Assembly: GCA_965197895.1 (NCBI GenBank)
Contig: OZ240232.1
Location: 714,318-778,317 of the forward strand
DNA length: 64,000 bases
Direction of reading: 5' to 3'
DNA from: Candidatus Versatilivoraceae bacterium
Lineage (GTDB): Bacteria; Acidobacteriota; Terriglobia; Versatilivoradales; Versatilivoraceae
Shown: piece by piece, positions 6,649 to 48,772 of the stretch
How the letters are laid out: the number at the start of each line of letters is the position of its first letter
Numbering within the stretch: position 1 is the first letter of the stretch
Notes under the pieces: generated by a model
What the model saw: the letters and a program-made list of their open reading frames with translations, nothing else
The model's database searches: none
Told to the model about the DNA's origin: nothing
Translations under genes and position numbers: made by a program

Positions 6649-6675
6649 TTGACATCAAGTGACTGGTCATATAGC
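6649..6675 (+). promoter_or_regulatory. candidate sigma70-type promoter of phd-vapC operon, overlapping palindrome TGACtgGTCA (putative operator)
   Basis: TTGACA (6649-6654) then TATAGC/CATATA about 15-17 nt downstream. ATG of the antitoxin follows within ~10 nt (leaderless-like). Palindrome TGACTGGTCA lies in the spacer. Confidence 0.35.
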
Positions 6676-6683
6676 CTAGTCCT

Positions 6684-7318: not shown

Positions 7319-7477
7319 TCAGGCGTCCTTCAGCCGTCGGCCGGTGTGGGGGATTGGATCCCTGGCCTTCTTCTCTGTGGCCATTGACGATCTCCCCATC
7401 CTGAGTGACACCCCTCGAGATCCGTCCCAGGCAAAGTCACGGGATCAACGGTGCCACGATTTCGATCAGCCACTCTC

Positions 7478-18771: not shown

Positions 18772-19791
18772 ATGGTCGTTCTCCCGGATTCATCCAAGAT
18801 TCTGATCATACGGTATGGCCGATTGGGGGACGTCGTACTCCTGATTCCAGCCGTGCGGGCTCTGCGCCAAAGGTTTCCTTCCGCTCACATCTCGGCTCTG
18901 GTGGATCAGCGATATTCCCCGGTTCTGGAGATGTGTTCCGCCATTGACGCCGTTGTCCCCGTGGACCGCATCGGAATGCGGGATAGTCCTTGGTGGTCAG
19001 GAACTCGAAGCGCTTTTCAATTGGCCGAAGGACTGCGAAGAGCTGAATATGACCTGGTGCTCGATTTTCACGGTTTTCGGGAAACCAACTTGCTGGCCTG
19101 GTACAGTCGGGCCCGTTGGAGGATTGGTCTCAAGAGGACAGAGCCTTCCTACCTGCCCTTCTGCTTTAACTTGGAGCCTGTCGTGGAGAACCAGAACCTG
19201 CATGTGGCCGAGCGGTTTCAATCACTGCTGGAACCCCTAGGGGTCGTCCCGGGGACGCAGGACATCTCTCTTGAGCTTCCCTCCGAGACCACAAGCAAAG
19301 CGGAGGCGTTCCTGCGGGAAGAACAGTTGGCCGGATGTACCGCCCTGATTGGAATGAACCTGGGGGCCAGCGCTGTCGACAAAATGTGGCCGGCTGCAAG
19401 CTTTGCGGCTCTTGCCGACAAACTTGCCCGGCGGTTCGATGTGGGAGTCCTCTTTCTTTGCGGACCCGAAGAAGAAGATCTTCTCAGGCAAGCCGAATCA
19501 GCTCTGGAGACCCATCGTTACGCTCTGGTGGGTCAGCTCGGATTGAAGGACTTGGCGGCGGTGGTCAGCCGGTGTGATTTGCTGGTGAGCAACGACTCCG
19601 GACCGATGCACTTTGGCCCTGCTTTGGGAGTCCCCACCCTGGGTTTGTTTAGTTTGAGCTCTCCCTTGCATTACCGGCCCTTGGGTGAGCACAGCCGTTT
19701 TTTGAGGAAGGTTCCGGTCGGAGAAATCCGGGTGGAGGAAGTCTTTGAGCAGGTCGTGGAAATGATGGGTCTAGTGACCGGTGGCCGGTGA
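18772..19791 (+). CDS. glycosyltransferase family 9 (ADP-heptose:LPS heptosyltransferase-like)
   Basis: KILIIRYGRLGDVVLLIPAVRALRQRFP N-terminus and C-terminal DSGPMHFGPALGVPTLGLF motif typical of GT9. Start chosen at ATG 18772. The last codons (GLVTGGR) are encoded by the first units of the heptamer array. Confidence 0.75.
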   Translation: MVVLPDSSKILIIRYGRLGDVVLLIPAVRALRQRFPSAHISALVDQRYSPVLEMCSAIDAVVPVDRIGMRDSPWWSGTRSAFQLAEGLRRAEYDLVLDFHGFRETNLLAWYSRARWRIGLKRTEPSYLPFCFNLEPVVENQNLHVAERFQSLLEPLGVVPGTQDISLELPSETTSKAEAFLREEQLAGCTALIGMNLGASAVDKMWPAASFAALADKLARRFDVGVLFLCGPEEEDLLRQAESALETHRYALVGQLGLKDLAAVVSRCDLLVSNDSGPMHFGPALGVPTLGLFSLSSPLHYRPLGEHSRFLRKVPVGEIRVEEVFEQVVEMMGLVTGGR

Positions 19792-19927
19792 CCGGTGGCC
19801 AGTGACCGGTGGCCAGTGACCGGTGGCCGGTGACCGGTGGTCAGTGACCGGTGACCAGTGACCGGTGACCAGTGACCGGTGGCCAGTGACCGGTGGCCAG
19901 TGGCCGGTGACCGGCGGCCGGTGGTCA
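19774..19927. repeat. tandem array of ~11 units of 14-bp GTGACCGGTGGCCA (alternating 7-mers GTGACCG/GTGGCCA)
   Basis: Read directly: gtgaccggtggccg gtgaccggtggcca ... with minor unit variants. Ends at ggtggtcAGATCTgtaagg immediately upstream of the four-helix-bundle gene. Confidence 0.9.
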
Positions 19928-19943
19928 GATCTGTAAGGGTTAG

Positions 19944-20333
19944 TTGCGAATGATGAATCCGTTAAAGAGCTATCAGGACTTGGAGGTCTGGAAGAAATCA
20001 ATCGAGCTAGCGGAGAGCGTCTATCAAATCTCTACTCGGTTTCCGCCGGAGGAGAGGTTCGGCGTGACCAGCCAAGTGCGGCGGACAGCAGTGTCGGTAG
20101 CGGCGAACATCGCGGAGGGAGCGGAACGTCACGGGACCGGAGAGTTTCTTCAATTTCTGGGAATCGCTAGCGGGTCGCTAGCGGAGTTGGAGACTATCTT
20201 GATTCTGGTGCATCGACTGCAGATGGTCACCTCCGAGCAGGCTGCCAGGCTGTTGGAACAAGCGGCGGAGGTTGGACGCCTGCTTAACGGCCTCAAGCGT
20301 TCACTGCGATCTAGAATGCGATCTAAAAACTGA
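19944..20333 (+). CDS. four-helix-bundle protein (TIGR02436 / 23S rRNA-intervening-sequence-protein family), copy 1
   Basis: 129 aa: SYQDLEVWKKSIELAESVYQISTRFPPEERFGVTSQVRRTAVSVAANIAEGAERHGTGEFLQFLGIASGSLAELETIL. This is the family consensus (xYxDLxVWQKA ... FxLTSQxRRAAVSIPSNIAEG ... FLxIAxGSLxELxT). Confidence 0.8.
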   Translation: MRMMNPLKSYQDLEVWKKSIELAESVYQISTRFPPEERFGVTSQVRRTAVSVAANIAEGAERHGTGEFLQFLGIASGSLAELETILILVHRLQMVTSEQAARLLEQAAEVGRLLNGLKRSLRSRMRSKN

Positions 20334-20350
20334 ATGGAGAGGACTTCCCC

Positions 20351-20418
20351 AGCCACCAGCCAGTGACCGGTGGCCAGTGACCGGTGGCCAGTGGCCGGTG
20401 ACCGGTGGCCGGTGGTCA
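20351..20418. repeat. second, shorter copy of the GTGACCG/GTGGCCA heptamer array
   Basis: cagccaccagcca gtgaccggtggcca gtgaccggtggcca gtggccggtgaccggtggccggtggtcagatct; part of the 491-bp duplication unit. Confidence 0.85.
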
Positions 20419-20434
20419 GATCTGTAAGGGTTAG

Positions 20435-20824
20435 TTGCGAATGATGAATCCGTTAAAGAGCTATCAGGACTTGGAGGTCTGGAAGAAATCAATCGAGCTA
20501 GCCGAGAGCGTCTATCAAATCTCTACTCGGTTTCCGCCGGAGGAGAGGTTCGGCGTGACCAGCCAAGTGCGGCGGACAGCCGTGTCGGTAGCGGCGAACA
20601 TCGCGGAGGGAGCGGAACGTCACGGGACCGGAGAGTTTCTTCAATTTCTGGGAATCGCTAGCGGGTCGCTAGCGGAGTTGGAGACTATCTTGATTCTGGT
20701 GCATCGACTGCAGATGGTCACCTCCGAGCAGGCTGCCAGGCTGTTGGAACAAGCGGCGGAGGTTGGACGCCTGCTTAACGGCCTCAAGCGTTCACTGCGA
20801 TCTAGAATGCGATCTAAAAACTGA
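20435..20824 (+). CDS. four-helix-bundle protein (TIGR02436 family), copy 2 (protein identical to copy 1)
   Basis: Nucleotide sequence differs from copy 1 at only two synonymous third-codon positions (gcg/gcc, gca/gcc); protein 100% identical. Confidence 0.8.
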   Translation: MRMMNPLKSYQDLEVWKKSIELAESVYQISTRFPPEERFGVTSQVRRTAVSVAANIAEGAERHGTGEFLQFLGIASGSLAELETILILVHRLQMVTSEQAARLLEQAAEVGRLLNGLKRSLRSRMRSKN

Positions 20825-20840
20825 ATGGAGAGGACTTCCC

Positions 20841-20946
20841 CAGCCACCAGCCACCGACCACCGACCACCGACCACCGACCACCGACCACCGACCACCGAC
20901 CACCGACCACCAGCCACCGACCACCGGCCACCGACCACCGGCCACT
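20841..20946. repeat. tandem array of 7-bp CACCGAC (CCACCGA) units, ~13 copies
   Basis: cagccaccagccaccgaccaccgaccaccgacc...; lies between 4HB copy 2 and the stop of the convergent cytochrome b/c gene. Confidence 0.9.
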
Positions 20947-20953
20947 GCAAAAG

Positions 20954-22603
20954 CTACTGGCGAGGATCCAGCGGGAGAGATTCCATGTAGGCGACGATGG
21001 CATTCATCTCGTCTTCAGGGAAATCGTAGGCCGGCATGATGCTCTGACGATCAAATTTCTGAGGATTACGGAAATGAGCGACCAGCCATTCTGCTGTTCT
21101 GCGCTGGCCGACGCCGTTGAGAGGGGGACCTGATTCCACTCCACTTCCGTTGACGATGTGGCAGGAGCCGCATTGGTTCTCCTGGTAAATCAGGGCACCT
21201 CGCATGGCGTAATCGGGGACCGCTTGCAGGGTCCCGGCGTTCTCCGGAGTGAGTTTCAGCAAGAAGGCGGTCAGGCAGTTCAGTTCTTCGTCGGGAATGG
21301 TCATGGCCGGCATGGGACTGCCGGGAACGACTTCGGAAGGATTTTTGAAGTGCTCGATGAGCCATTCGGTTGACTTTCGCTGTGCTACGTTGGCCAGCGT
21401 CGGTCCCATCTTGGGTTCACCCTCACCCAGATTGTGACAACTCGCACAATTTTCCCTACGATAGTAGGCTCTCCCGGCCATTTCCACCGGCGTGAGTTGT
21501 CTCCAGTCTGCCGTAGCCGGCAGCGTCTCCCGAGCGGGCTCCACCGGCTCGGGTGTGGTCATGACCGCTCCCACAGTCAAGCCCAGCCAGCCGGCCACAG
21601 CCAGACCGACCACGGCGAAGGCCGCCGTCCGCTGCTGGATTCGCTTGACCCTGCCGCGATCGAGAAAAGGAACGGCCATTAAGGCGATGATGGCCAGTGT
21701 GGGGAGAATGACGGCCCCGACCACTTCCCACGAACCCTCGAAGAACTTGAGCATCTGGAAGAGAAAGAGGAAGTACCATTCCGGCCGGGGGACATAGGTG
21801 CTGTCACTGGGATCGGCCAGACGCTCCAGGGGCACGTCCACGGCGGCGGCCAGGATAAACAGAACAATAAAGACGGCGAAAAAGGCCATCAAATCCTTGA
21901 AGGCTTGACCGGGATAGAATTTCTTCTTGGGTTTACCCACCGCTTTGGGGTCGGGAGTGACTCCATGCTTGCGAACCAGGTAGACGTGGAGCATCATCAT
22001 CAGCACCGTCAAGCCCGGCAGCATCAAGACATGAAGGGTATAAAAGCGAGTGAAGGTCGCCACACCGACGCCGTCGGAACCGCCAAGAAAATCAAGGACA
22101 TAGTCCCCGACCAGCGGAGCGAGGCCGGCAATCTGGACCGTTACCACCGTAGCCCAATAGGCCCGGTTATCCCAGGGGAGCAGGTAACCGGTCAATCCGA
22201 AGGCCAGCACCAACAGCAGCAGCAAAACCCCCAAAATCCAGGTGGCCTCCCGCGGCTTCTTGTAGGCTCCCCACAAGCCCACCTGAATCATGTGCAGCCC
22301 GACCACCACCACCATGAGGGTGGACCCCCAATGGTGGAGCCCCCGGATCAGACGTCCGCCAGTGATCTGGGTGACAATGTACTGGAGACTGTAATAGGCG
22401 TCGCCCGGTTGCGGGGCATAGTTGAAGGCCAGCAGAGTGCCGGTAAAGGCTTGCACAAAGAAGAGGAAAACGGCAACGCTGCCAAAGACCTGGTGCCAAC
22501 CACTCGAGGCCGGGATGTCTTCATAGAGGAAGTTCTTGACAGCCGTTTCGAATCCGGTGCGATGATCCGCCCAATTCAGGATTCTTCGAAGCAGATCCCT
22601 CAT
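20954..22603 (-). CDS. cytochrome b (bc-complex type) fused to C-terminal di-haem cytochrome c
   Basis: 549 aa; 8+ TM helices with conserved His pairs of cytochrome b. C-terminal CASCH and CGSCH haem c motifs. ATGA overlap with the upstream Rieske gene. Confidence 0.8.
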   Translation of the reverse strand: MRDLLRRILNWADHRTGFETAVKNFLYEDIPASSGWHQVFGSVAVFLFFVQAFTGTLLAFNYAPQPGDAYYSLQYIVTQITGGRLIRGLHHWGSTLMVVVVGLHMIQVGLWGAYKKPREATWILGVLLLLLVLAFGLTGYLLPWDNRAYWATVVTVQIAGLAPLVGDYVLDFLGGSDGVGVATFTRFYTLHVLMLPGLTVLMMMLHVYLVRKHGVTPDPKAVGKPKKKFYPGQAFKDLMAFFAVFIVLFILAAAVDVPLERLADPSDSTYVPRPEWYFLFLFQMLKFFEGSWEVVGAVILPTLAIIALMAVPFLDRGRVKRIQQRTAAFAVVGLAVAGWLGLTVGAVMTTPEPVEPARETLPATADWRQLTPVEMAGRAYYRRENCASCHNLGEGEPKMGPTLANVAQRKSTEWLIEHFKNPSEVVPGSPMPAMTIPDEELNCLTAFLLKLTPENAGTLQAVPDYAMRGALIYQENQCGSCHIVNGSGVESGPPLNGVGQRRTAEWLVAHFRNPQKFDRQSIMPAYDFPEDEMNAIVAYMESLPLDPRQ

Positions 22604-24094: not shown

Positions 24095-26178
24095 CCCATC
24101 TTTAACACAGGAACGGGCGATGGGGGGGATTTTACCCCCATTTTGGCCCAAAACCACCTGTAAGTTGTTGATTCTTCGTAGGAGAAGCTGAAGTAGTGCC
24201 ATAATCGTATGGGAGGGGCTTGACCCCCTCGCCCCCCTCTGTTAGGGTCCCTCCCATGTTCATCCGCCGCACCCAGACCCGCTCCACTCCCTCCGGTCAG
24301 ACCTACTTCACCCACCGCCTCGTCCGCTCCCATCGCCTCTCAGGCAAGGTCCGCCAGCAGACCCTGCTCAACCTCGGTCGCCACTTCTCCATCCCCCGCC
24401 ATGACTGGCCCCTGCTGTGCCGCCGTCTCGACCAGATCCTCAGCGGTCAGTTGCCCTTGATCCAGGAGGGTTCGGCCCCGTTGGAGGAGGAAGCCCAACG
24501 CATGGCCGAGCGCTTGCTCGAGGGGGAAGCCGACGTGACCGGCACCGCTGGGGAGGCCTCTTCAGAAGACCTGCAGACGGTGGCGGTGGATTCGGTGGAG
24601 GTGACCCGTCCGCGCAGCGTCGGGGTGGAGCAGGTGGGCTGCTGGGTGCTGGAGCAGTTGGGGTTGGTGGAGTTGCTGGCCGAGTTGGGTCTGAATGGAC
24701 CGCTGCGGGCGGCGGCGGTGGGGGCGATTGTGGGCCGTCTGGCCCGTCCCGGCTCGGAACGGGCCACCTGGGGCTGGCTCGGCCGGCGCAGCGGCTTGGG
24801 CGAGTTGCTGGACTTTGACTTCCAGACACTGAGCCTGATGCAGATGTATCGGGCTTCAGACGCCCTGATGAGACACCGCCAGGCCATCGAGGCCCACCTG
24901 TTCACCCGGGCCATGGGTCTGTTCGATCTCGAGCCGACCGTCACCCTGTTCGATCTGACCAACACCTTCTTTGAGGGGGCGGCCCGCCGTCAACCCAAGG
25001 CCCAGCGGGGGCACTCGAAGGAGAAGCGCAGTGACTGTCCCCTGCTGACCCTGGGGTTGGTGCTGGACGGGGCCGGGTTTGTGCGCCGCTCGCAGGTCTT
25101 TGCCGGCCGGGTGGATGAGCACCGCACCCTGGCCGGGATGCTGGGGGCGCTCGAGGCGCCCCAGGGGGCCCTGGTGGTGATGGATCGGGGGGTGGCGACC
25201 GAGGATCGCATCGGGTGGTTGAGGGAGGAAGGGTACCGCTATGTGGTGGCCAGCCGCCAAGGCTCCCGGCAGTTCGACCCCGAACTGGCCCTGACCTTGG
25301 AGACCGCTTCCAAGGCCAGGTTACAGCTCCACAAGGAGGTCTCAGAGGACGGGGGGGAAGTGCGTCTCTACTGCCGTTCCGAGGAGCGGGCTCACAAGGA
25401 ACGGGGTATTGTCGAGCGTTTCAGCCGGCGCTTCGAGCAGGGGCTCGCCCGAATCTCCGAGGGGCTCTCACGGCCGCGGGCTCACAAGGGCATCGAGAAG
25501 GTCCGGGAACGGATCGGGCGGCTGAAGGAGCAGAGTCGCGGCGTGGCTCAACACTACACCATCGAGGTCCTCACCGACGAGAGCGGCCGCAAGGCGACGG
25601 CCCTGACCTGGAAGCGTCAGCCCCGCCAGGGCTCGATGGTCACCCATCCGGGGGTCTACTGCCTGCGCAGCAACCAGACCGACTGGGACGAGGAGAGCCT
25701 GTGGCGCACCTACGCCACTCTCACCGACGTGGAAGCGGTGTTTCGCTCCCTGAAGTCCGAGCTGGGCCTGCGCCCCATCTATCATCACAAGCCGGTGCGC
25801 TCGGAAGGCCACCTGTTCCTGACCGTCATCGCCTATCAACTGGTGCAGGTCATCCGCAAACGCCTCAAGCAGCGGGGCGACTCCTCCAGTTGGACCACGC
25901 TGCGGCGCATCCTGGAAGGACAGCAGCGGGTCACGGTGACCTTCCGGCGTGGGGACGGGCGGACCTTGCACGTGCGCAAGGCCACGCGGGCAGAAACTGA
26001 TCAGAAGGCCATCTACGACGCCCTGGGCATCGATCCCGCTCCCGGAGGGGTCCGCAAGATGATCGTCTGATCCCCCCCATATCGCCGGTTTCAACGCGTT
26101 TGTAGTGCCACTTGCGCGTTTCTGCCTTCGTAACCTGTTGATAATAAGCGTGTACTCGGAAGCCGCGTTAAAGATGGG
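24095..26178 (+). mobile_element. IS1634-family insertion sequence nested inside the IS4 transposase gene
   Basis: Perfect 12-bp terminal IRs CCCATCTTTAAC (24095-24106) / GTTAAAGATGGG (26167-26178). Flanking CTAC on both sides (24091-24094 and 26179-26182) is consistent with a 4-bp target-site duplication (TSD). Removing the element restores the in-frame host ORF. Confidence 0.75.
24256..26070 (+). CDS. IS1634-family (IS4 superfamily) DDE transposase
   Basis: 604 aa; motif GHSKEKRSDCPLLTLGL matches the IS1634 GxSKDxRxD signature. DDE region VVMDRGVATEDRIGWLREEGYRYVVASRQ. Confidence 0.75.
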   Translation: MFIRRTQTRSTPSGQTYFTHRLVRSHRLSGKVRQQTLLNLGRHFSIPRHDWPLLCRRLDQILSGQLPLIQEGSAPLEEEAQRMAERLLEGEADVTGTAGEASSEDLQTVAVDSVEVTRPRSVGVEQVGCWVLEQLGLVELLAELGLNGPLRAAAVGAIVGRLARPGSERATWGWLGRRSGLGELLDFDFQTLSLMQMYRASDALMRHRQAIEAHLFTRAMGLFDLEPTVTLFDLTNTFFEGAARRQPKAQRGHSKEKRSDCPLLTLGLVLDGAGFVRRSQVFAGRVDEHRTLAGMLGALEAPQGALVVMDRGVATEDRIGWLREEGYRYVVASRQGSRQFDPELALTLETASKARLQLHKEVSEDGGEVRLYCRSEERAHKERGIVERFSRRFEQGLARISEGLSRPRAHKGIEKVRERIGRLKEQSRGVAQHYTIEVLTDESGRKATALTWKRQPRQGSMVTHPGVYCLRSNQTDWDEESLWRTYATLTDVEAVFRSLKSELGLRPIYHHKPVRSEGHLFLTVIAYQLVQVIRKRLKQRGDSSSWTTLRRILEGQQRVTVTFRRGDGRTLHVRKATRAETDQKAIYDALGIDPAPGGVRKMIV

Positions 26179-38120: not shown

Positions 38121-38151
38121 AGTGGACAAGAAGAATTGCGAGGGAATCGGC

Positions 38152-39093
38152 ATGACTCCGCGAACAGTGTATTTCAACGGTAAATTCGTCAGCGAGCAGG
38201 AAGCTCGAGTCTCCATATTCGATTCCGCCCTGATGTTTGGAGACATGGTGTTCGACATGACGCGGACCTACGGGCAAAAGCCCTTCAGGCTCAAGGAGCA
38301 TTTGGAGCGGATCTATGCCGGGCTCAAGTATCTGGAGATCGATTGCGGCCTGACTCTGGACGAGATGGAGCGGGCCACCCTGGAGACCCTGGAAAGGAAC
38401 CTGCCGGTTGTGGACGGGGCCGACGTCCAGATCATGCATGACGTCTCCCGCGGTCCCCTGCCCGTGTACAAGAGCGTATTCGGAGGAGCCGTTCAACCCA
38501 CCGTTTCCATCAACTGCTGGCCCCTGTGGTGGCACTTGGCCGGCAACGGCCCCATGTACCGTTCGGGGGTTCATTCGGTGATTGTTCCCCAGCGATCGGT
38601 GCCGGCTCACCTCATTGAGCCCAAGGTCAAGAACAGAAGTCGCGTCTACTACCAGATGGCCAATCTGCAGGCCCACAAGGTCGATCCCGGGGCCTTTCCG
38701 CTACTGACGGATGATCAAGGGTTTATCACCGAAGGCAGCGGCTCCAATTTCTTCATTGTCCGCCAGGGTCGGGTGCTCACTGCCAAGAGCCACCATATTC
38801 TGGTGGGCGTGTCGCGGAATGCGGTCCTGGACCTGCTGACCTCCATGGCGGTGCCCTGGGCCGAGGAAGACTTCGGGGCCTACGAAGTCGTCAATGCCGA
38901 CGAGGCTTTCCACACCGCCACCACCTTCGCCGTCATGCCTTGCACGCGAATCAATGGCTTGCCCATTGGTGATGGGAAGCCCGGCCCGCTGACCCGAAAG
39001 CTCATCGCGGCCTGGAGCGAATTGGTGGGCCTCGATATCGTGGCTCAAGCCGATGAATATGCCGGGAAAGTCAAGGAGATGGGTGGGCCTTAG
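38152..39093 (+). CDS. class IV (branched-chain / D-amino-acid) aminotransferase family protein
   Basis: MTPRTVYFNGKFVSEQEARVSIFDSALMFGDMVFDMTRTY and EGSGSNFFIV motifs of the IlvE/DAAT fold-type IV family. Start chosen at ATG 38152. Confidence 0.75.
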   Translation: MTPRTVYFNGKFVSEQEARVSIFDSALMFGDMVFDMTRTYGQKPFRLKEHLERIYAGLKYLEIDCGLTLDEMERATLETLERNLPVVDGADVQIMHDVSRGPLPVYKSVFGGAVQPTVSINCWPLWWHLAGNGPMYRSGVHSVIVPQRSVPAHLIEPKVKNRSRVYYQMANLQAHKVDPGAFPLLTDDQGFITEGSGSNFFIVRQGRVLTAKSHHILVGVSRNAVLDLLTSMAVPWAEEDFGAYEVVNADEAFHTATTFAVMPCTRINGLPIGDGKPGPLTRKLIAAWSELVGLDIVAQADEYAGKVKEMGGP

Positions 39094-39147
39094 CGTGCAA
39101 GAGCCGTTCTTGCCCTTCCCCGGCAGCGAACCCGTTCCGGCTGGGAG

Positions 39148-40494
39148 TTGCAGGCCATGGCCATGAACGTTACCGATCTGACGCCTGTGGCCACCCGCCC
39201 GGTGGAGACTCGCTTCCGTCGCATCGGCACCCCCATTCCCGTTCCCGAGTCGATGGCGTTGATTCGACGACTGCGAGAGGTGGAACCGCAGTCGATGGCG
39301 GGCATGGTGCCCATTGTCTGGCATCAGGCCCAGGGATTTCTGGTCCGCGACCCCTATGGAAACCAGTGGATTGACCTGAGCAGCGGTATTGTGATGGCGA
39401 ATAGCGGTCATGCCCATCCCCGCATCCTCCAGGCCATCCGGCAACAGTTGGAGTCGCCGCTCCTGTTCACCTATGCCTATCCCTCGGAGGTCCGCCAGCG
39501 CCTTTTGAAGCGTCTGGTCAAGCTGGCGCCTCCCGGTCTGAACAAGGCCATCCTGTTTTCATCGGGAACGGAAGCCAACGAGTGTGCCATCAGTCTGATG
39601 AGGAGGCATGGCCGCAGGATTGCACCCGAGAAGACGGGGATCATTTCCCTGGAGGGGAACTACCACGGGCGGACGCTGGCAGCCAAGGCGGCCAGCGGGG
39701 GAGACGCTCGGGTCGACGGCATTCCACGCCAAAATCTGCGCCATTTTCAGCTTCCCCGTCCGACTGGGCGAGGGTTTGCGGCCGATCTGAAATCCTGCGG
39801 CTTGGCCCCGGACAACATCGCCGGCGTCATTCTGGAATCCATTCCCGGCGTCACCACCGCCTGCCATCCTCTGGAATATGTCCGGGAGTTGAGGGCTTGG
39901 GCCAGCCGACATCGGGTGTTGATTGCCGTGGACGAGATCCAGTGTGGTGTGGGCCGAACGGGGAAGATGTTCGCCTTCGAGCATTACGACATCGCTCCGG
40001 ATCTGATTACCTGCGGCAAGGGGTTGAGCTCCAGCTTGCCGGTTTCGGCCGTCATCGGGGCCAGGGAAGTGATGGACCTGGCTCCACCGGGCGAAATGTC
40101 CAGCACCTTCGGGGGTAATCCGGCCTGCGTGGCGGCGGCAGAGGCCAATCTCAAACTGATAGAAGAAGAAGGGCTGGTGGAGCGGGCAGCCTCGCTCGGA
40201 GAGCAACTTGAGCAGTGGTTGGCCCCCGTGGTCGAAAGGCATCCTCGATCGATTGGCCAGGTCAACGGCAAAGGGTTGTTTTATTCCATCCACCTGAGAA
40301 ATCCGGTCAGCGGAGATCCATGGGTGGAGAAGGCCGACCAAGTGGCCCTCGAAAGTGTCCGGCGGGGTGTTCTGCTGTTCGTGACGGGAAGGGGCTTCCT
40401 CAAGATCGTACCGCCTCTGATGATTGACCGGGAGGCCTTGCAGGAAGCTGTGGAGGTGGTCGTCGCTGTTCTGGATGCGGAGCTGACTCCATGA
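39148..40494 (+). CDS. class III PLP aminotransferase (omega-aminotransferase family)
   Basis: SGTEANECAISL, DEIQCGVGRTGKMFAFEHYDIAPDLITCGKGLSS: class-III signature with Schiff-base Lys in the TCGKG context. Confidence 0.8.
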   Translation: MQAMAMNVTDLTPVATRPVETRFRRIGTPIPVPESMALIRRLREVEPQSMAGMVPIVWHQAQGFLVRDPYGNQWIDLSSGIVMANSGHAHPRILQAIRQQLESPLLFTYAYPSEVRQRLLKRLVKLAPPGLNKAILFSSGTEANECAISLMRRHGRRIAPEKTGIISLEGNYHGRTLAAKAASGGDARVDGIPRQNLRHFQLPRPTGRGFAADLKSCGLAPDNIAGVILESIPGVTTACHPLEYVRELRAWASRHRVLIAVDEIQCGVGRTGKMFAFEHYDIAPDLITCGKGLSSSLPVSAVIGAREVMDLAPPGEMSSTFGGNPACVAAAEANLKLIEEEGLVERAASLGEQLEQWLAPVVERHPRSIGQVNGKGLFYSIHLRNPVSGDPWVEKADQVALESVRRGVLLFVTGRGFLKIVPPLMIDREALQEAVEVVVAVLDAELTP

Positions 40495-41261
40495 CAAAAC
40501 CCCTGACGGTGGATCTGGAAGGACGGTGCGCTCTGGTGACGGGAGGTGGAACCGGGATTGGTCGGGCCATCGCCATGGGATTGGCCCGCTGCAGCGCCCG
40601 AGTGGTGGTGAACTATTCCCGGAGTGCAACCGAGGCCCGGGACACCGTCGCCGAGATTATCCGGCAAGGGGGTCAAGCTGTATCGGTTCGAGCCGACGTC
40701 ACCGATGAGGAGCAGGTCAGGCTGGCCATAAGAATGGCGATCCGGACCTATGGGGGGCTGGATATTCTCATGGCCAATGCCGGGGGGCCGACCGAGCAGT
40801 GCCCAACCGCGGCCCTGTCCAGTGAGCGCTGGGACGAAGGATTGAACTTGAATTGCAAGTCGGTCTTCTTTTGTGTCAAGCACGCCATCCCGCTGTTGCC
40901 GGATGGTCACGGTCGTATCCTCATTACCTCGTCAATCAGCGCCCGCAGCGGAGGGGGGCCCGGGACCATAACCTATACGGCTGCTAAAGGAGCCTTGAAC
41001 AATCTCGTGCGGGGATGGGCCAAAGAGCTTGGACCTCGCGGCATTACGGTCAATGCCATCGCGCCGGGCGTGATCTGGACCCGTATCCACCAGCAGCGGA
41101 CCCCGCCGGAGGTCTACCGGGGCCTGATCGATCGAATTCCGCTGGGCCGCGATGGACGGCCGGAGGATTGCGTGGGGGCGGCGCTGTTCCTGGCCAGTCC
41201 GGAAGCTTCCTACGTCACCGGACAGATTCTGGAAGTCAACGGCGGGATGTTGATGCCGTAG
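40491..41261 (+). CDS. SDR-family oxidoreductase (3-oxoacyl-reductase-like)
   Basis: ALVTGGGTGIGRAIA (TGxxxGxG), NAGG, S...YxxxK spacing. ATGA overlap with the upstream aminotransferase. Confidence 0.8.
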   Translation: MTKPLTVDLEGRCALVTGGGTGIGRAIAMGLARCSARVVVNYSRSATEARDTVAEIIRQGGQAVSVRADVTDEEQVRLAIRMAIRTYGGLDILMANAGGPTEQCPTAALSSERWDEGLNLNCKSVFFCVKHAIPLLPDGHGRILITSSISARSGGGPGTITYTAAKGALNNLVRGWAKELGPRGITVNAIAPGVIWTRIHQQRTPPEVYRGLIDRIPLGRDGRPEDCVGAALFLASPEASYVTGQILEVNGGMLMP

Positions 41262-41302: not shown

Positions 41303-41385
41303 CCACGAAGGGGATCCACGAAGAGCACGAAGGGGAAAAGAGATATCCACGAAGGGCCACGAAGGACGACGAAGGGCCACTAAGG
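41303..41385 (+). repeat. array A: 7 direct copies of (C)CACGAAGG spaced ~9-13 bp
   Basis: tCCACGAAGGggatCCACGAAGaGCACGAAGGggaaaagagatatCCACGAAGGgCCACGAAGGacGACGAAGGgCCACtAAGGgg. Confidence 0.85.
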
Positions 41386-41581: not shown

Positions 41582-41970
41582 ATGGGCAACGGTAGCGAGA
41601 GGCTTGAAGCACTGGCCAAAAAAATAAAACAGGATATCGAAAAAGGAGCGGCACCCAGATCGGAGAAGTTGACAGTCCGCGAGTTTATCGGCTGGTATGG
41701 AAACCGTAGACGAGGATCATGGCTTGTTAAGCATATCCGAAACAAAATGGAGGTATTGAAGCTTCGGACCGTCCCTGATTTCGAGTTCGCATATATTGAT
41801 TCAAGGATTGAGATCAGAACTGCAGATGGTTCACCCTCAGGAGGTCTTGAAGATCCTGTCCATCGTATCGGAACCCTTGCAGCAGCGCACAACAAGCCTA
41901 TGAGAGTTGCTCCGGATGACCGGCTCAAAGTGGCCACAACGAAAATGCAGTTAAATGATTTTTCTCAGCT
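41582..41970 (+). pseudogene. 5' part of a gene encoding N-terminal unknown domain + first CBS motif, interrupted by IS insertion
   Basis: AAGGAG RBS 7 nt before ATG 41582: MGNGSERLEALAKKIKQDIEKGAAPRSEKLTVREFIGWYGNRRRGSWLVKHIRNKMEVLKLRTVPDFEFAYIDSRIEI...KPMRVAPDDRLKVATTKMQLNDFSQL. The last codons of the track ORF (SLLQNS*) are IS inverted-repeat sequence. Confidence 0.6.
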
Positions 41971-43450
41971 GAGCCTTTTGCAAAATTCGTAGTGGAGCAT
42001 GTCATTTTGCTGGCTAACGTGATGTGCCACTCGTGACTACCCGACAGCAAAGGCACTTTTGAACGGAAATGTCCGGATCTGAAGGCCGGATCACAGGCGG
42101 TCGCCGGAAGCAGGCACAGCTTGCCTCATTCCTGCCCTACGGCGGGTGCTCATCCTGCATTGTCCGGGATCCGTCGCGACGGGCTCAAAGCATCAGGCGC
42201 ATCAACTGTTCCACCGTCAGCGCGAGAATGCCGAACATCAGGTGGCACCACACCTTGCCTGGGCCGCGAACCCTCACGTACCGCCCGCCAAACTCGTCCT
42301 TGAGCCGTCCGTTCACCCGCTCCACGGTCGAGCGTTCGCGGTAGCGCCTCGCCTCGGGAGACACTTGGCCGATGCGGCGCTGCGCCAGCGCCTCCCGCTT
42401 TCGTTCCGCTTTCACCTGCGGCCGCCTGCGGGGGTTGAGGTCGATGATCGGCACATGCCCCAGCTTTTGGCTGAAGGCCCGGATCTCCGGCGCGTCATAG
42501 GCGCTGTCCATCAGGTCGTAGAGGCTGTCGACCCGACTCGCGGTCAGCCTCGCCAGCGGGATCGCCGCCTGACTGTCGTGCACCGAGGCTGACGTCAGCA
42601 GGCAACTGACCGGAATGCCGCCGTCGATCGCGTCGATGTGCAGCTTGTAGCCGGTCCAGCTCTCCTGATATCCCTTGGCGTTGCGCTTGACGCCGATGTC
42701 GCAGACCTTCGGCAGGTCCTCCAGCATCTGCTCCAGCGTCATCGACGCCTGCCGCTGCAGACGGCGCGGCTCCTTCGGCCGTGGCTCGTCCTGGCGCGGC
42801 CGACCCCGCCGGCGCTTCGCTTTGGCCGTCGGGGCGGGCTTGGGCGCCGGCGACTCGCGTCCCGGGATCGTGGTCGAGTCCCTCGACACATGGCCCGCCA
42901 GGTGGCCCGCTAGCGTTCTGTCGAGCAGCGCCTCATGCAGGCGCCCCGGCAGGTCGCTGGCGGCAAATTCCGCAAAGGCGCGTGAGAAGGTCGCCTCGCT
43001 CGGCACCCCACCCGCCGCCTCCCAGCCGCACAGGCGGCGCAGCGTAGGTTCCGTCCTCAGCCGCTCCACCAGCCCCCGGGTGGTGGGCACATCCAGCACC
43101 GCCTTCGCCAGAAAGGCCCGCGCCAGCGCCCCACGATCCTTCAGCGGCCGGCCCCGCCAGCCCCCGCTGTAGGGCAGCCACTCCTCCACCCGCACCAGTT
43201 CCAGCACTCGGACGAGCCGCTCGTAGCGCTCGCCGAGGGGACCCAGTGCCTCCTCCAGCCAGGGGAACAGCTCCCGTTGAAACGTGAACCAGTGTCGTGA
43301 TAGGGTTTGTCTAAGGGGCAAGTTGGCTCTCCTTTCATCATGAGGATGGGGTATCTCCATGATACAACAGAGAGCGGACTTGTCCCCTCGATTGACCTAT
43401 TCCCTTACCTTTCCCGACAAAAAATCCCGCTACCTACGGAATTTTGCAAA
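41971..43450 (-). mobile_element. IS5/IS1182-like insertion sequence (1480 bp) with 22-23-bp IRs and 4-bp AGCT target-site duplication (TSD)
   Basis: IR-L GAGCCTTTTGCAAAATTCGTAG (41971-41992); IR-R revcomp of ctacggaattttgcaaaaggctc (43428-43450) = GAGCCTTTTGCAAAATTCCGTAG. AGCT at 41967-41970 and 43451-43454. Excision restores one continuous ORF. Confidence 0.75.
42185..43360 (-). CDS. IS5/IS1182-family DDE transposase
   Basis: 391 aa; DSAYD...IIDLNPRR...YRERSTVERVNGRLKDEFGGRYVRVRGPGKV...HLMFGILALT: C-terminal signature of the IS5/IS1182 group. Confidence 0.7.
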   Translation of the reverse strand: MEIPHPHDERRANLPLRQTLSRHWFTFQRELFPWLEEALGPLGERYERLVRVLELVRVEEWLPYSGGWRGRPLKDRGALARAFLAKAVLDVPTTRGLVERLRTEPTLRRLCGWEAAGGVPSEATFSRAFAEFAASDLPGRLHEALLDRTLAGHLAGHVSRDSTTIPGRESPAPKPAPTAKAKRRRGRPRQDEPRPKEPRRLQRQASMTLEQMLEDLPKVCDIGVKRNAKGYQESWTGYKLHIDAIDGGIPVSCLLTSASVHDSQAAIPLARLTASRVDSLYDLMDSAYDAPEIRAFSQKLGHVPIIDLNPRRRPQVKAERKREALAQRRIGQVSPEARRYRERSTVERVNGRLKDEFGGRYVRVRGPGKVWCHLMFGILALTVEQLMRLML

Positions 43451-43454
43451 AGGC

Positions 43455-44076
43455 TCAGCTACCTGTAATGACGGGCGAACGCACTGTAAAGGGAATCATC
43501 AGCTGGAAATCGATAGGCACGAGCTTCTCATTGGGGGGGCCGTGCGAGTGGGTTCGTGATTGCATGGAAGAATCGGTGGAAGAAATCTCTATTGACGCTC
43601 CTCTTTTTGAGGCTATTGGCTCCACTGCAAAACACGGATACTTGTTAGTGCGAGGCAAAGACAAGGCTGTAACTGGCATAGTGACGGAAACCGACGTTTC
43701 CAAACAGTTCATGCATCTCGCTGGCCCGTTCTTGCTCATCGGCGAAATAGAGGGCCACTTGCGCCAGTTGATTCATGGAAAGTTCACTGTTGAAGAAATG
43801 CAGTTAATATCCGAGGGTGAAGGGGGACAAGGCATTTCCGGTTCGGCAGACCTGACTTTTGGCGGATACTGTCGACTCCTGCAGAATCCAGAGTACTGGG
43901 AAAGGCTGAATCTGGGTGTCGATCGAGGGCAGTTCGTTGAACATCTGGAGTCCGTGAGAAAAATACGGAATGATGTCATGCATTTTGACCCCGATGGTTT
44001 GTCTCCTGAAGATGAAAGGATGTTGCGGGGTGTCGCTCGATTTCTTGAGACTTTGATCAGAAAAGGAGTGAAGTGA
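43455..44076 (+). pseudogene. 3' part of the interrupted gene: second CBS motif + C-terminal HEPN-like domain (Rx4H)
   Basis: After removing the IS and one AGCT, the frame continues ...DFSQLPVMTGERTVKGIISWKSIG...HGYLLVRGKDKAVTGIVTETDV (CBS) ...LTFGGYCRLLQNPEYWERLNLGVDRGQFVEHLESVRKIRNDVMHFDP (R-x4-H HEPN motif). The first 5 codons of the track ORF (MQKAQ) derive from the IS IR. Confidence 0.6.
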
Positions 44077-44265: not shown

Positions 44266-44323
44266 GAAGGGGAAAAAAGAAATCCACGAAGGGGCACGAA
44301 GGACCACGAAGGGACACGAAGAG
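44266..44323 (+). repeat. array B: 4 direct copies of CACGAAGG at ~10-bp phase; ~85% identical to the distal part of array A
   Basis: gaaggggaaaaaagaaatCCACGAAGGgGCACGAAGGaCCACGAAGGgaCACGAAGAg; aligns with gaaggggaaaagagatatccacgaagggccacgaaggacgacgaagggccactaagg from array A. Confidence 0.85.
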
Positions 44324-44452
44324 ACTGATTGCTGATTTCTGTTCGTTGATTGGGGAGTTGTGACAACTGATTTTGCCTTAAATCCAAATTCTACAATCCG
44401 AAATTCACGAAACTTGACTCATCTGTCAATGTCGTTTCGACTCAAGAGATCT

Positions 44453-44525
44453 AGCCACTGACCACTAGCCACTAGCCACTAGCCACTGACCACTGACCAC
44501 TAGCCACTAACCACTAACCACCGAC
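44453..44525. repeat. tandem array of ~10 heptamers CACT(G/A)(A/G)C / CACCGAC
   Basis: agCCACTGACCACTAGCCACTAGCCACTAGCCACTGACCACTGACCACTAGCCACTAACCACTAACCACCGAC. Overlaps the last 5 codons and stop (44507) of the minus-strand nitrilase-family gene; preceded by AGATCT. Confidence 0.9.
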
Positions 44526-45409
44526 TTGGCTTCCGTCAGGGCGCCGAAGAGTTCGGGACGTCTTTGGCGCAGGGTGTAGTTGGGTTGGCTGCGCGCTTCC
44601 CAGAGTTTTTCGGGGAGCAAATCGGCGATCAGAACTTCTTCCTGAATCTTCTCGAAGGAGGTTGCGGCAGCCACCTGTCCCAGCGGGTCCATGATCAGAC
44701 AGCCGCCAGCATGGTTAGGTTGGTTGGGGCTGTCCTTGGGGTAGGTGTCGACGATCCCGGCTCTTCCAGCCTGATTGCAGAGCACCGTATAGCAACTGTT
44801 TTCGTAGGCTCGGGCGGAAGCGATCATGTGGAAGTACCGGCCCGAATAGGCGGCCGCCTCTTTCTCCGACTCCGGATCGTCGGTCCACATCTTCAACCGG
44901 GCGGCGTGGGGCATCAGAATGACATCGGCCCCCTTCAGAGCCAGAATCCGGGGGACCTCGGGAAGGGAGTTGTCGTAACAGATGACCGTTCCCACCCGGC
45001 ATTTGCCGATGTCGAAGACGGGCATCTCCGAGCCGCCTTCGTAGTGAATGACCTCGTCCCGGGAGAGGTGAATTTTTCTCTGAGCCCCGATGTAGCCCTT
45101 CGGACCCACCAGAACCTGGGTGTTGTAGACGATATCGTTCTCTTTTTCGCTGAGGCCCACGCTGAGAAAGACATTCAAGGCTTGGGCCAGCAGGCAGAGG
45201 TGTTCGACGCTGCGGCCGTCGGGCACTGCCTCTGCCTGATACCAGGTATTGGGCGCGTTGTGTCCATGCACCACCAACTCGGGGAAGAGGACCAGGTCGG
45301 CGCCCGAATCTTTGGCGCGAGCCGCCCATTGGTCAATGGCACGCAAATTCTTTTCCGTCTGGCCCAGTAACCCGTTCATGGCGACCGCCGCAACTTTCAG
45401 TTTTTGCAT
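44507..45409 (-). CDS. carbon-nitrogen hydrolase (nitrilase superfamily), paralog 2
   Basis: MQKLKVAAVAMNGLLGQTEKNLRAIDQWAARAKDSGADLVLFPELVVHGH..., collinear with 7478..8368. Start chosen at ATG 45409. Confidence 0.8.
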   Translation of the reverse strand: MQKLKVAAVAMNGLLGQTEKNLRAIDQWAARAKDSGADLVLFPELVVHGHNAPNTWYQAEAVPDGRSVEHLCLLAQALNVFLSVGLSEKENDIVYNTQVLVGPKGYIGAQRKIHLSRDEVIHYEGGSEMPVFDIGKCRVGTVICYDNSLPEVPRILALKGADVILMPHAARLKMWTDDPESEKEAAAYSGRYFHMIASARAYENSCYTVLCNQAGRAGIVDTYPKDSPNQPNHAGGCLIMDPLGQVAAATSFEKIQEEVLIADLLPEKLWEARSQPNYTLRQRRPELFGALTEAKSVVSG

Positions 45410-45538
45410 GGGATCAAACCTCGCTTCACTTTGATTCTCACAGGTCTCAGGAAAGAAAACCGAAACCGCCGCCGCTGCCGGAACCACAAAGCACAACGGA
45501 ACCGGGGAGGACCGAGCCGGGCGACGGCAGGTCCGGGG

Positions 45539-46549
45539 TTACTGCCAGGCTCGAATCCTGGGCGGGCCTAAGGACCATCGCAAGTCCATGGCCAGAGGAA
45601 AGTGTTCGTCGATCTTGTCCAAGTGCTCCTGTGGGATCTGCAGCTGACTTCCGCGGATCGAACTTTCTAGTTGTTCGAGGTTGCGGATGCCCATAATCAC
45701 CGAGCTCACCCCAGGATGCCGCAACGCCCAGCCAATGGAATACTCGGCCAAGCTGACCCCCAGTTCTCCCGCCAACCCTCGGACGACTTCGATTCTCTGC
45801 CAAATGGGTTCCGATAGGGGGCGCATCCAACCGGGGTGTTCGGCCAGACGGCTCCCCCGAGGCGTCTCTCCCACCCGATACTTGCCGCTCAGCCATCCGC
45901 CGTGAAGCACCTGGTAGGGGGTGATGCCGATCCCGAATTTCTTGCAGAAAGCGATTTCGGAGATCTCTATTTCCCGGCGCAGCATGCTGTATGGCGGTTC
46001 GTAGGCGATCATCCTTTCCAAGGCGAAGCGATCGCTCAACCAGAGCATTTCGCACATCTGCCAGGCCAGATAATTGGAAACGCCGAAGTAGCGAATCTTG
46101 CCCTGCTTCACGAACAGATCGAGTGTGCGCAAACTTTCTTCAAAGGGAGTTTCCAGATCGGGCCAGTGGAGCATCAGGACGTCAATGCAGTCGGTCCGGA
46201 GCCTGCGGAGACAATTCTCCAATTCGGTCTGCAAGTGAATTCTGGAGCCTCCTTTTTGGTGGGGGCCGGGACCCAGGGCGTTGGCAATTTTCGTCAAAAG
46301 AACCACCTGGTTGCGCTTGCCCTTCAAAATCCTTCCCAGATACTCCTCCGCCACGCCTCCCGGGCTACCGACCGTGCGGTTGTAGCCCTCGTAGGAACTG
46401 GCCGTGTCAATAAAATAGACCCCACGATCGATGGCCTGGTGAATCAGTTGGGTGGCTTCCTTCTCGGTGGTCGGGTTCCCGAACAACATGGTTCCGAAGC
46501 AAATCGGGGAGACCGAGACACCGCTGGCTCCCAGCCTTCTAAGTTTCAT
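45539..46549 (-). CDS. aldo/keto reductase
   Basis: 336 aa; FIDTASSYEGYNRTVGSPGGVAEEYLG, IRYFGVSNY: AKR signatures. Confidence 0.8.
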   Translation of the reverse strand: MKLRRLGASGVSVSPICFGTMLFGNPTTEKEATQLIHQAIDRGVYFIDTASSYEGYNRTVGSPGGVAEEYLGRILKGKRNQVVLLTKIANALGPGPHQKGGSRIHLQTELENCLRRLRTDCIDVLMLHWPDLETPFEESLRTLDLFVKQGKIRYFGVSNYLAWQMCEMLWLSDRFALERMIAYEPPYSMLRREIEISEIAFCKKFGIGITPYQVLHGGWLSGKYRVGETPRGSRLAEHPGWMRPLSEPIWQRIEVVRGLAGELGVSLAEYSIGWALRHPGVSSVIMGIRNLEQLESSIRGSQLQIPQEHLDKIDEHFPLAMDLRWSLGPPRIRAWQ

Positions 46550-46852
46550 GATTGACTCTCAAGAGTATTCTCGCTTCGCACTCCGGACCTATCTGGCGGC
46601 AGGATGGTCTTCAGCGGTCCGCCGGTTGACAATTCCGGAGGCCGTTCATAGCATACGGAGTCACTAGAGGCTCAGTATTATTGACACTGTTCCGGGGCAA
46701 GTCAAGGAAGGGAACGGGCGTTCCGGCAGGGCGAGGCCTTCATCGAGGAATGCGCTGGTGGCGGCAGCCGAGAAACCCCGATCCGCGAGGCCTACTGTAC
46801 ATTTCGGGGCCCTATCCCTGAAAGGGTCGTCGGGCGGTTTCCGAGGTGGTCA

Positions 46853-48772
46853 ATGCAGGTCAACGACGCGTTGTCGATTGCAGTGGCGGGATGCGGCAGC
46901 TTCGGGAAGCAGATGGCGGATCTTTTGGGAACGCTTCCCGGCTTTCGCATCAGCGCCGTTTGCGACGTCGATTCGGAGAAAGCCCTGGCCCTGGGAAAGA
47001 AGCTGAACGTTCCGGCCCATACCTGCTTCGAGCGCTGCTTGGAAGAAAGTCGAGCGGAGGCGGTAGCTCTGTTTACTCCCAACCACCTCCATGCTCCCAT
47101 GGCCATCGCCGCCGCTGGTGCGGGGAAGCACATCTTCTGCGAAAAGCCGATGGCCATGAATGTCGAAGAATGCTACGCGATGGTGGAAGCCGCCGAGGCC
47201 AACCGGGTGAAGCTGATGGTGGGCCATAAGCGGCGACTGCGTCCGCAGTACGCCAAAATGGCCGAGATTGTCCACGGCCTGCGCTACGGCAGGCCCTTGG
47301 CGGTGCAGGTCAACGGGTTCTACGGCCGTGAGCTGTGGGGATGGTGGACAAGACGCGAGATGGGCGGGGGCCTGCTGTTTCATTCGGGAGTCCACGATCT
47401 CGATTTCTTGAGGTACGTGTGCGGCGAGGCGGGAACGGTTTTCGCTCGCAGTCCCGTCAAAACCGACCATGGCTGTGATTTTGAGGATGCTTTGGCGCTC
47501 CTGATTCAATTCGAGTCGGGCGCGGTCGCCACCCTGCAGGTGAGCCCGTTTTCTCCCCAACGAACCTTTCGGCAAGCCTTCGGAGTGCACATCGTCCTTG
47601 AGCGGGGAGACCTCATCTATGATCCGGTTCAGGTGGCTGTGACTGTGCAGGGCAGAGGTGAGAGCCCTGAGCGGTTTCAGTTCGACAACGAGGCTGGCTT
47701 TCGCGAGGCTTACCGCACCGAATTCGAGAGCTTTGCAGACTGGGTGACCCGTGATGCCGAGCCGGTGCTGACCGGTTGGGATGGCCTGCGCTGCGTCGAA
47801 ATCATGGAAGCCGCTCAAATTTCGGCCTACAGCGGCAGGCAGGTTCAGCTCCCCCTCCCGAAACGGCGGGCTCGACGGGTCCTGTCGGGCACCGTTTCCA
47901 TGACCCGCGAGTTGGGCGAGCCCACGCTCTTCGCCCGAGGCCTCTCCATGGCGGAAGGTCCTGCCTTTGACCGGCAGGGTCACCTGTTCGTGGCCAACTG
48001 TCGCGCCCACCACATCTCCAAAATTTCACCCGGCGGTGCGGTCAGCGATTTTCTCTCCACCGGAGGAAAGCCCCAGGGTGTCGCTCTTGCACCCGATGGA
48101 CACTTGTTCATTACCGACAATCAGAAGCGGATGATTTTTCGAGCAGATGCCGACGGCAGGTTCGAGCCATTCTGCAGCCGCTATGAAGATGGGAGCCCGC
48201 TGCGGGGTCCCAACGAGATCACCATGGCTGCCAACGGGCAGATTTACTTCACCGACCCCGGAACCGCCTGGCGGGGCCGACCGGGGGGAGCCGTTTCCCG
48301 GATCGGCGCGTCAGGGCGGGCCGAGCTGTTGGCCGATGGACTGGAATTCACCAACGGGCTGGACTTCACGCCCGACGGCAAGAGGCTCTACGTGGTTGAA
48401 ACCACGACAGGAAAGGTGCTGTGCGCCTCTTTGGATGCCGATGGGGCCCTGGCCGAACCGCTGAGCGAGTTCGTTCGCTTCGAAGGCAGCGTCGGACCCG
48501 ACGGCATTCGCTTTGCTGCCAGCGGGAACCTCTACGTCACTCTTTTTGGTCGTGGCCAGGTGGCGGTCGTGAGCCCGCAAGGCAAGGTGGTCGACCGTCT
48601 CCGCGTACCGGGCTTGTTTCCGACCAATGTCATTTTCAGGGGGAGTTCGCTGTTGGTCTGCGAAGGGCAGACCGGCTCGATCTGGAAGTTCGACGTGGGT
48701 GAGGAGGGCGTTCCCTCCTATGCCCAGAGGATCTGGCAGGGAGCATTGGAAACCGATTCATGGTCCAGCTAG
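46853..48772 (+). CDS. Gfo/Idh/MocA oxidoreductase fused to C-terminal SMP-30/gluconolactonase/LRE-like beta-propeller
   Basis: N-terminus IAVAGCGSFGKQMADLL...TPNHLHAPMAIAAAGAGKHIFCEKPMA (Gfo/Idh/MocA). C-terminal ~300 aa with lactonase-like repeats (GPAFDRQGHLFVANC, GVALAPDGHLFITD, NGLDFTPDGKRLYVVE, PDGIRFAASGNLYVT). Confidence 0.7.
   Translation: MQVNDALSIAVAGCGSFGKQMADLLGTLPGFRISAVCDVDSEKALALGKKLNVPAHTCFERCLEESRAEAVALFTPNHLHAPMAIAAAGAGKHIFCEKPMAMNVEECYAMVEAAEANRVKLMVGHKRRLRPQYAKMAEIVHGLRYGRPLAVQVNGFYGRELWGWWTRREMGGGLLFHSGVHDLDFLRYVCGEAGTVFARSPVKTDHGCDFEDALALLIQFESGAVATLQVSPFSPQRTFRQAFGVHIVLERGDLIYDPVQVAVTVQGRGESPERFQFDNEAGFREAYRTEFESFADWVTRDAEPVLTGWDGLRCVEIMEAAQISAYSGRQVQLPLPKRRARRVLSGTVSMTRELGEPTLFARGLSMAEGPAFDRQGHLFVANCRAHHISKISPGGAVSDFLSTGGKPQGVALAPDGHLFITDNQKRMIFRADADGRFEPFCSRYEDGSPLRGPNEITMAANGQIYFTDPGTAWRGRPGGAVSRIGASGRAELLADGLEFTNGLDFTPDGKRLYVVETTTGKVLCASLDADGALAEPLSEFVRFEGSVGPDGIRFAASGNLYVTLFGRGQVAVVSPQGKVVDRLRVPGLFPTNVIFRGSSLLVCEGQTGSIWKFDVGEEGVPSYAQRIWQGALETDSWSS

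Follow-up and report, generated by a model that had tools for sequence, protein, structure and literature searches.

We analyzed a 64-kb stretch of DNA from a Candidatus Versatilivoraceae bacterium (positions 714,318 to 778,317 of contig OZ240232.1, hereafter the window), in which two plus-strand open reading frames (ORFs; 41582-41992 and 43444-44076) are separated by a GC-rich segment with a minus-strand transposase. We could confirm that the two ORFs are one gene cut by the insertion of an insertion sequence (IS). By sequence, this gene is a member of the DS-11 family of anti-phage proteins, inactivated by the IS; the family itself is already known. We conclude, with a confidence of about 0.88, that a copy of DS-11, a single-protein anti-phage system, was acquired horizontally into the chromosome at this locus and was recently knocked out by an IS of the IS1182 family.

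Excision of 41971-43460 (1490 bp, the IS plus one AGCT) joins 41582-41970 in frame to 43461-44076 and yields a protein of 334 amino acids (aa) with the junction …NDFSQL/PVMTGERTVKG…. A first-pass annotation, made from the letters of the window alone, had proposed this fusion by IS removal. The in-frame join holds, at 334 aa against the ~340 aa then estimated. The same annotation had ascribed the last six codons of the upstream ORF and the first five of the downstream ORF to the IS, and the ORF ends agree: the upstream ORF closes with six IS-encoded codons (SLLQNS, then stop), and the downstream ORF (210 aa) begins at a TTG within the right terminal repeat (MQKAQ-). The IS is inserted between L130 and P131, in the invariant SQLPVM strand of the first CBS domain (CBS1) and three residues past F127. 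The IS apart, the split ORF contains no other lesions. GC content is 49% in the gene and 65% in the IS, with 59.5% for the 64-kb window. The three parts that had been outlined for the fused protein, namely an N-terminal domain, a CBS pair and a C-terminal domain with an Rx4H motif, were all found and are encoded as follows.

41582 to 41970, plus strand: 5' fragment of the split DS-11-like gene, with codons 1-129 and two bases of codon 130
41582 to 41836, plus strand: N-terminal module, aa 1 to ~85, then a low-confidence linker and the beginning of CBS1
41960 to 41962, plus strand: codon of F127, the counterpart of DS-11 Y157
43461 to 44076, plus strand: 3' fragment of the split DS-11-like gene, with the third base of codon 130, aa 131-334 and stop
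up to 43686, plus strand: rest of the CBS pair, to aa ~205
43687 to 44073, plus strand: HEPN-like domain, aa 206-334
43966 to 43968 and 43981 to 43983, plus strand: codons of R299 and H304

The IS spans 41971-43456 (1486 bp) and is bounded by an 18-nt perfect terminal inverted repeat, with GAGCCTTTTGCAAAATTC at 41971 and its reverse complement ending at 43456. Exact matches to this repeat occur twice in the window, in inverted orientation, where 0.06 would be expected, and the repeats lengthen to ~22/23 nt if one indel is allowed. The inverted repeats and an AGCT duplication had been correctly recognized in the first-pass annotation; its figure of 1480 bp for the length of the IS was slightly too low. 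The element is organized as follows.

41971 to 41992 and 43434 to 43456: left and right terminal repeat of the IS, which lies on the minus strand
41967 to 41970: target-site duplication AGCT, left copy
43457 to 43460: target-site duplication AGCT, right copy
42185 to 43360, minus strand: transposase ORF, 391 aa, with the Pfam domains DUF772 and DDE_Tnp_1
43386 to 43359, minus strand: sigma-70-like promoter match ahead of the transposase ORF

The best tblastn matches of the transposase are annotated IS1182 transposases of the ISUnCu17 type (44-50% identity over the full length), which places the element, previously described as IS5/IS1182-like, in the IS1182 family. It shares with ISUnCu17-like members the DUF772 and DDE_Tnp_1 domains, the terminal inverted repeats and the 4-bp duplication. 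Unlike them, it encodes a transposase that is short for the family and scores 98.9 bits against the NCBIfam IS1182 model, under the cut-off of 270, and its subgroup is uncertain. An exact look-up of the transposase sequence gave no record in the collection searched. The Rfam scan returned no match at gathering score and one chance-level match inside the IS, and the promoter scan detected only the promoter-like site of the transposase and none facing outward on the plus strand.

The closest genomic relatives of the window belong to Candidatus Versatilivorator (Acidobacteriota). We compared the locus with the contig encoding the closest homolog (L001), with another related genome (L002), with a Candidatus Versatilivorator metagenome-assembled genome (L004) and with a near-identical strain (L084). 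The search for intact orthologs suggested in the first-pass annotation was successful: related genomes carry an intact gene at the same locus, written …TCTCAGCT/ACCTGTAATG… across the junction. In L001 and L002 the empty site reads …TTTTTCTCAGCT/ACCTGTAATG… with a single AGCT. AGCT thus represents the target-site duplication, and the possibility that this palindrome forms part of the inverted repeat is ruled out by the same two sites. The gene order in L001 matches that of the window (DegT, two aminotransferases, SDR, the DS-11 gene, CN-hydrolase, aldo-keto reductase and GFO/SGL). L084, whose 6.4 kb of upstream sequence matches the window at 99.4% identity, likewise has the window's IS site empty. 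A database search for homologs (E≤1e-5) returned 2357 proteins. Among them, the 18 full-length proteins closest to the rebuilt one have 334-337 aa and are 82-92% identical to it, and the six of these that we aligned show no gap across the junction. The split ORF and the empty sites together bear out the proposed knock-out of the gene by the IS. The insertion is recent, as the duplication is perfect, the ORF is otherwise undamaged and a strain as close as L084 has the site empty. An assembly artefact is ruled out by the precise duplication, by the existing empty sites and by further IS copies elsewhere, as 91% identical copies are located at other sites in L002 and L004. One such copy in L002 begins ~60 bp past the stop of the intact DS-11 gene. 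In L001, a 247-bp derivative of the IS1182 family that resembles a miniature inverted-repeat transposable element (MITE; 11141-11387) shares the terminal repeats, carries a GGCT duplication and sits 136 bp 3' of the intact gene.

The assignment of the gene to DS-11 is based on an equivalog model, NCBIfam NF053863 ('DS11_antiphage, CBS domain-containing anti-phage protein'), against which the rebuilt protein scores 341.2 bits (cut-off 260), a score that holds for the reconstructed ORF only; aa 33-325 cover model positions 1-305 of 305. BLASTP against E. coli DS-11 (WP_000257686.1, retrieved from E. coli KE47) aligned residues 6-328 of our protein with residues 7-359 at 38% identity (E 7e-84). 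DS-11 was validated in E. coli as a phage defense by DefensePredictor (DeWeirdt et al., Science 2026, PMC13092281). The system consists of a single protein with CBS and HEPN domains, which no longer defends when mutated by Y157A in the CBS portion or by R330A or H335A in HEPN and which was modeled with AlphaFold3 as a dimer with bound ATP (PMC13092281). In our alignment, Y157, R330 and H335 correspond to F127, R299 and H304, respectively. R299, N300 and H304 are each conserved in 199 of 200 homologs, and position 127 is occupied by tyrosine in 107 and by phenylalanine in 93 of them and by nothing else. The E. coli protein and ours share a collinear arrangement of N-terminal module, CBS pair and HEPN domain, and both keep the Rx4H residues as well as an aromatic residue at the CBS position. 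They differ in length (365 aa versus 334 aa, with a shorter linker after the N-terminal module in our protein) and at the ligand-contact position, where the window protein has phenylalanine for tyrosine. The window copy is moreover split by the IS, and so inactive, and its host has an Acidobacteriota-like genome.

The CBS pair is firmly assigned and is matched in two stretches by the Pfam CBS profile (E 7.9e-10). A Foldseek search of the PDB with a full-length model (pLDDT 74) gave CBS pairs as the top 50 matches (probability 1.0, TMt up to 0.79), and nothing but CBS pairs was returned. The C-terminal domain contains the near-invariant sequence R299-N-D-V-M-H304, which represents an Rx4-6H motif, and an AlphaFold2 (AF2) model of aa 207-334 is all-helical (pLDDT 85, pTM 0.80). 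A PDB profile search with this domain found nothing. When the C-terminal domains of 43 diverse homologs were searched against Pfam, the most frequent match was PF18731 HEPN_Swt1, found in 22 of the 43 (best E 2.2e-4, all below the gathering score) and in one case collinear over profile positions 6-111 of 115. Occasional sub-gathering matches to HEPN RiboL-PSP (three members) and HEPN Apea (one member) were also seen. The prevalence of HEPN_Swt1 agrees with an earlier survey in which CBS-HEPN fusions were already noted and CBS-fused HEPN domains were placed in the Swt1/Abi2 clade (Anantharaman et al. 2013, PMC3710099). Like the CBS-HEPN and CBS-HEPN-HD fusions described there (alr3009 and a Pelobacter protein), our protein joins a CBS sensor to a Swt1-like HEPN domain, for which Pfam HEPN_Swt1 is the recurring weak match and whose Rx4H motif is of the active type. 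Unlike the CBS-HEPN-HD proteins it has no HD domain, and its N-terminal module does not appear in that paper (PMC3710099). In our view, both the sequence evidence and the published mutants support the HEPN assignment well. Plasmid-borne CBS proteins from haloarchaea and Streptomyces (H4-H9) align at 26-30% identity with aa ~90/112-305/309 only; they comprise the CBS pair and HEPN up to the motif and do not have the N-terminal module.

The N-terminal module (~80-85 aa) has no sequence match in Pfam or the PDB; matches to CFAP115 and to designed repeats were dismissed as sums of weak repeats. It corresponds to positions 1-78 of the NF053863 model. Arg-44 is invariant, and R33, R43, R53, D66 and F67 show little or no variation. 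The secondary structure elements of the module are predicted to run alpha-beta-alpha-alpha-beta-beta, which would be the order of winged-helix domains. A profile search with the module among 1.84 billion representatives returned 1172 proteins at E≤0.001. Variants of 430-690 aa carry tandem modules ahead of CBS-HEPN (P0139 and P0165 are among the listed examples with a duplicated module or outside DS-11), two modules precede a TerB domain in P0217, and two modules are located near or at the C terminus of P0223 and P0243, unrelated proteins of 445 aa and 933 aa without Pfam domains. As the module occurs in tandem and in proteins other than DS-11, we regard it as an independent evolutionary unit.

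When intact, the 334-aa protein would thus have combined a CBS pair (Bateman module) with a conserved N-terminal module ahead of it and a HEPN domain of the Swt1/Abi2 type behind it. If it resembles E. coli DS-11 in its action, the CBS pair may bind an adenine-containing ligand and may gate a dimeric HEPN RNase with R299 and H304 as its catalytic residues. Upon infection, this RNase would degrade RNA and phage growth would stop, probably via growth arrest or abortive infection; for the Acidobacteriota host, we infer the RNase activity, the ligand and the abortive infection from the E. coli system. The same logic is found in the Csm6/Csx1 CARF-HEPN effectors of type III CRISPR systems, where a nucleotide-binding sensor gates a dimeric HEPN RNase. 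The window protein differs from these in having a CBS pair rather than CARF as its sensor and no cyclase partner gene, and its sequence relationship to them is limited to the HEPN superfamily. The first-pass annotation had likewise suggested a sensor-gated HEPN RNase. The DS-11 family match and the published E. coli mutants support this reading, and with the publication of DS-11 in 2025/2026 the idea is no longer new. In its present state the gene is non-functional, because the IS cuts CBS1 and neither fragment can form a Bateman module: the N-terminal fragment consists of 130 residues and six IS-encoded codons, and the C-terminal fragment is missing half of CBS1 and any detectable promoter.

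Several observations weigh against the interpretation of this gene as an anti-phage HEPN system. The window's own C-terminal domain has no match to Pfam HEPN_Swt1, the HEPN matches of its homologs being sub-gathering throughout. Its model gave no significant Foldseek match in the PDB (HepT toxin 6m6u_G ranked highest by TM-score, with 0.37 at E 2.4) and none in BFVD. The HEPN-like fold anticipated in the first-pass annotation has an all-helical AF2 model on its side and no significant Foldseek match to a solved HEPN structure. The PADLOC 2023 library, which is older than DS-11, contains no match to the protein. Identity to the tested E. coli protein is only 38%, and phage protection has been shown for the E. 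coli protein alone. Finally, the genes of the window are mostly metabolic and envelope genes with no defense island, and the 106 neighbor genes around 32 diverse homologs are mostly metabolic as well, with few defense genes (ThsB-like TIR, McrBC, PD-T4-3 and Vsr). Homologs mostly lie outside defense islands, the neighborhood that the first-pass annotation had proposed to look for. With such metabolic neighbors, most DS-11 homologs stand alone, as the premise of the DefensePredictor paper would have it. Homologs occur in Chloroflexota, Acidobacteriota, Cyanobacteria, Proteobacteria and Verrucomicrobiota, and a scan of GTDB species-representative genomes identified 387 loci.

Horizontal acquisition of the gene is suggested by its low GC content and by its divergence from L001. 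Synonymous divergence (dS) between the window and L001 is 0.135 for the DS-11 gene and 0.46-0.77 for six flanking genes (38150-41261 and 44507-48772), and the ratio of nonsynonymous to synonymous divergence (dN/dS) is 0.28 for the gene and 0.09-0.14 for the flanks. At the level of sequence, the low dS indicates recent lateral acquisition or exchange of the gene. Because it lies so far below that of the flanks, the cassette would have been exchanged between lineages long after their split, at the same locus. The gene lies between two copies of a direct repeat.

41329 to 41384, plus strand: 56-nt direct repeat, upstream copy, an array of CCACGAAGGG-like decamers
44266 to 44321, plus strand: 56-nt direct repeat, downstream copy, 89% identical to the upstream copy

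In all related loci, decamers resembling CCACGAAGGG form arrays 5' of the gene; such arrays also occur 3' of it, but in the window and L084 only. Decamers containing CACGAAGG number 12 in the window, where 2.8 would be expected, with arrays at 41304-41365, 44285-44312 and 1996-2076, and the decamer arrays have no match in Rfam. The array near 2 kb comes after an unrelated gene and includes an inverted copy.

The gene has been disrupted more than once. In L084, a 2.08-kb element of the IS1634 family (L084 6578-8661; window-equivalent 43645-43648) interrupts the ortholog at codon ~192, and in L004 it is split at codon ~49 by an IS1634-family element (5914-8000; window-equivalent 41726-41729). 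The transposases of these two elements are 98% identical, and both insertions are located at the 8-nt motif CTTGTTAR. With the IS1182-family insertion in the window, this makes three independent knock-outs of one gene by two IS families. Truncated homologs in L085 and L086 (P0019 and P0020) were set aside as candidates for further knock-outs, as these cases are compromised by a contig end and by an indel-rich assembly of low coverage. The window itself contains an IS1634-family copy at 24095-26178, which is 96.8% identical to the L084 copy and has a CTAC duplication and a 616-aa transposase ORF (24220-26067).

The chances are about even that these repeated insertions are neutral, with a dispensable AT-rich gene serving as a tolerated, sequence-preferred target in IS-rich genomes and no selection acting against a costly or toxic HEPN gene. 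Given the CTTGTTAR motif at both IS1634-family insertions, such a target preference has to be taken seriously as an alternative to selection. The 64-kb window contains at least two IS elements, further transposases surround the gene in L002 and L086, and the MITE derivative is located just downstream of it in L001. On the other hand, three independent insertions have hit one 1-kb ORF, while its six neighbors are intact in all loci compared. Intact neighbors would also be expected from purifying selection acting on them, and this comparison thus does not settle the matter between neutral and selected insertion. Two more speculative scenarios we regard as doubtful. In one, the repeated knock-outs would reflect selection against a costly or self-toxic DS-11, or an on/off polymorphism in the population, with the cassette being swapped laterally into a fixed, decamer-marked hotspot. 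In the other, the N-terminal module would be an undescribed nucleic-acid-binding sensor that sets DS-11 recognition.

We find it improbable that the intact protein was a housekeeping, nucleotide-responsive regulator of RNA stability rather than an immune protein, and that its loss reflects ordinary gene decay. Anantharaman et al. 2013 (PMC3710099) did propose a role in RNA-stability signaling, not defense, for CBS-HEPN fusions, and the fixed syntenic position between the SDR and CN-hydrolase genes in several genomes, the metabolic neighbors and the small number of homologs next to defense genes would fit such a role. The protein is, however, matched at the equivalog level to the family of an experimentally defending protein, and the GC content of its gene is 10 points under that of the genome. 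Its dS is 4-5 times below that of the flanks, indicating lateral exchange, with the elevated dN/dS given above, and the repeated knock-outs in near-identical strains show that the gene is dispensable. It is hardly credible that the split gene is still active, be it through the C-terminal 210-aa ORF made as an unregulated RNase from the IS end or through reassembly of the fragments: there is an in-frame TTG start in the right repeat and the HEPN domain is intact, but we found no outward plus-strand promoter in the scan, the Bateman module is cut within CBS1, and an unregulated HEPN RNase would presumably be toxic.

Further repeats and mobile elements were observed in the window and in L002. The window region 19745-20962 contains a 491-bp tandem duplication with two 100% identical 129-aa ORFs (19944-20330 and 20435-20821), surrounded by extensive 7-nt repeat arrays of the GTGACCG/GTGGCCA and CCACCGA types. 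A Pfam survey of the window ORFs gave two 23S_rRNA_IVP/bAvd-like matches, which are probably these identical ORFs. A similar heptamer array at 44451-44500 adjoins the DS-11 cassette. In L002 (7924-20944), the intact DS-11 gene is found amid several transposases, a PIN-domain gene and a gene for a 2068-aa HTH_upst_double_PIN protein.

What is new here is modest: the gene is recurrently disrupted by IS elements, it bears a signature of lateral exchange, and the N-terminal domain of its protein is modular; the published basic picture of DS-11 is unchanged by these points. The N-terminal module stands out as a separate, unannotated evolutionary unit that deserves structural study. With our analysis, a defense system whose validation is limited to E. 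coli is extended to environmental genomes that are Acidobacteriota-like, in which its homologs are abundant. With three IS disruptions and an apparently recent lateral exchange at a conserved site, the locus provides a natural example of DS-11 gene turnover, and such turnover bears on the cost of HEPN-based immunity.

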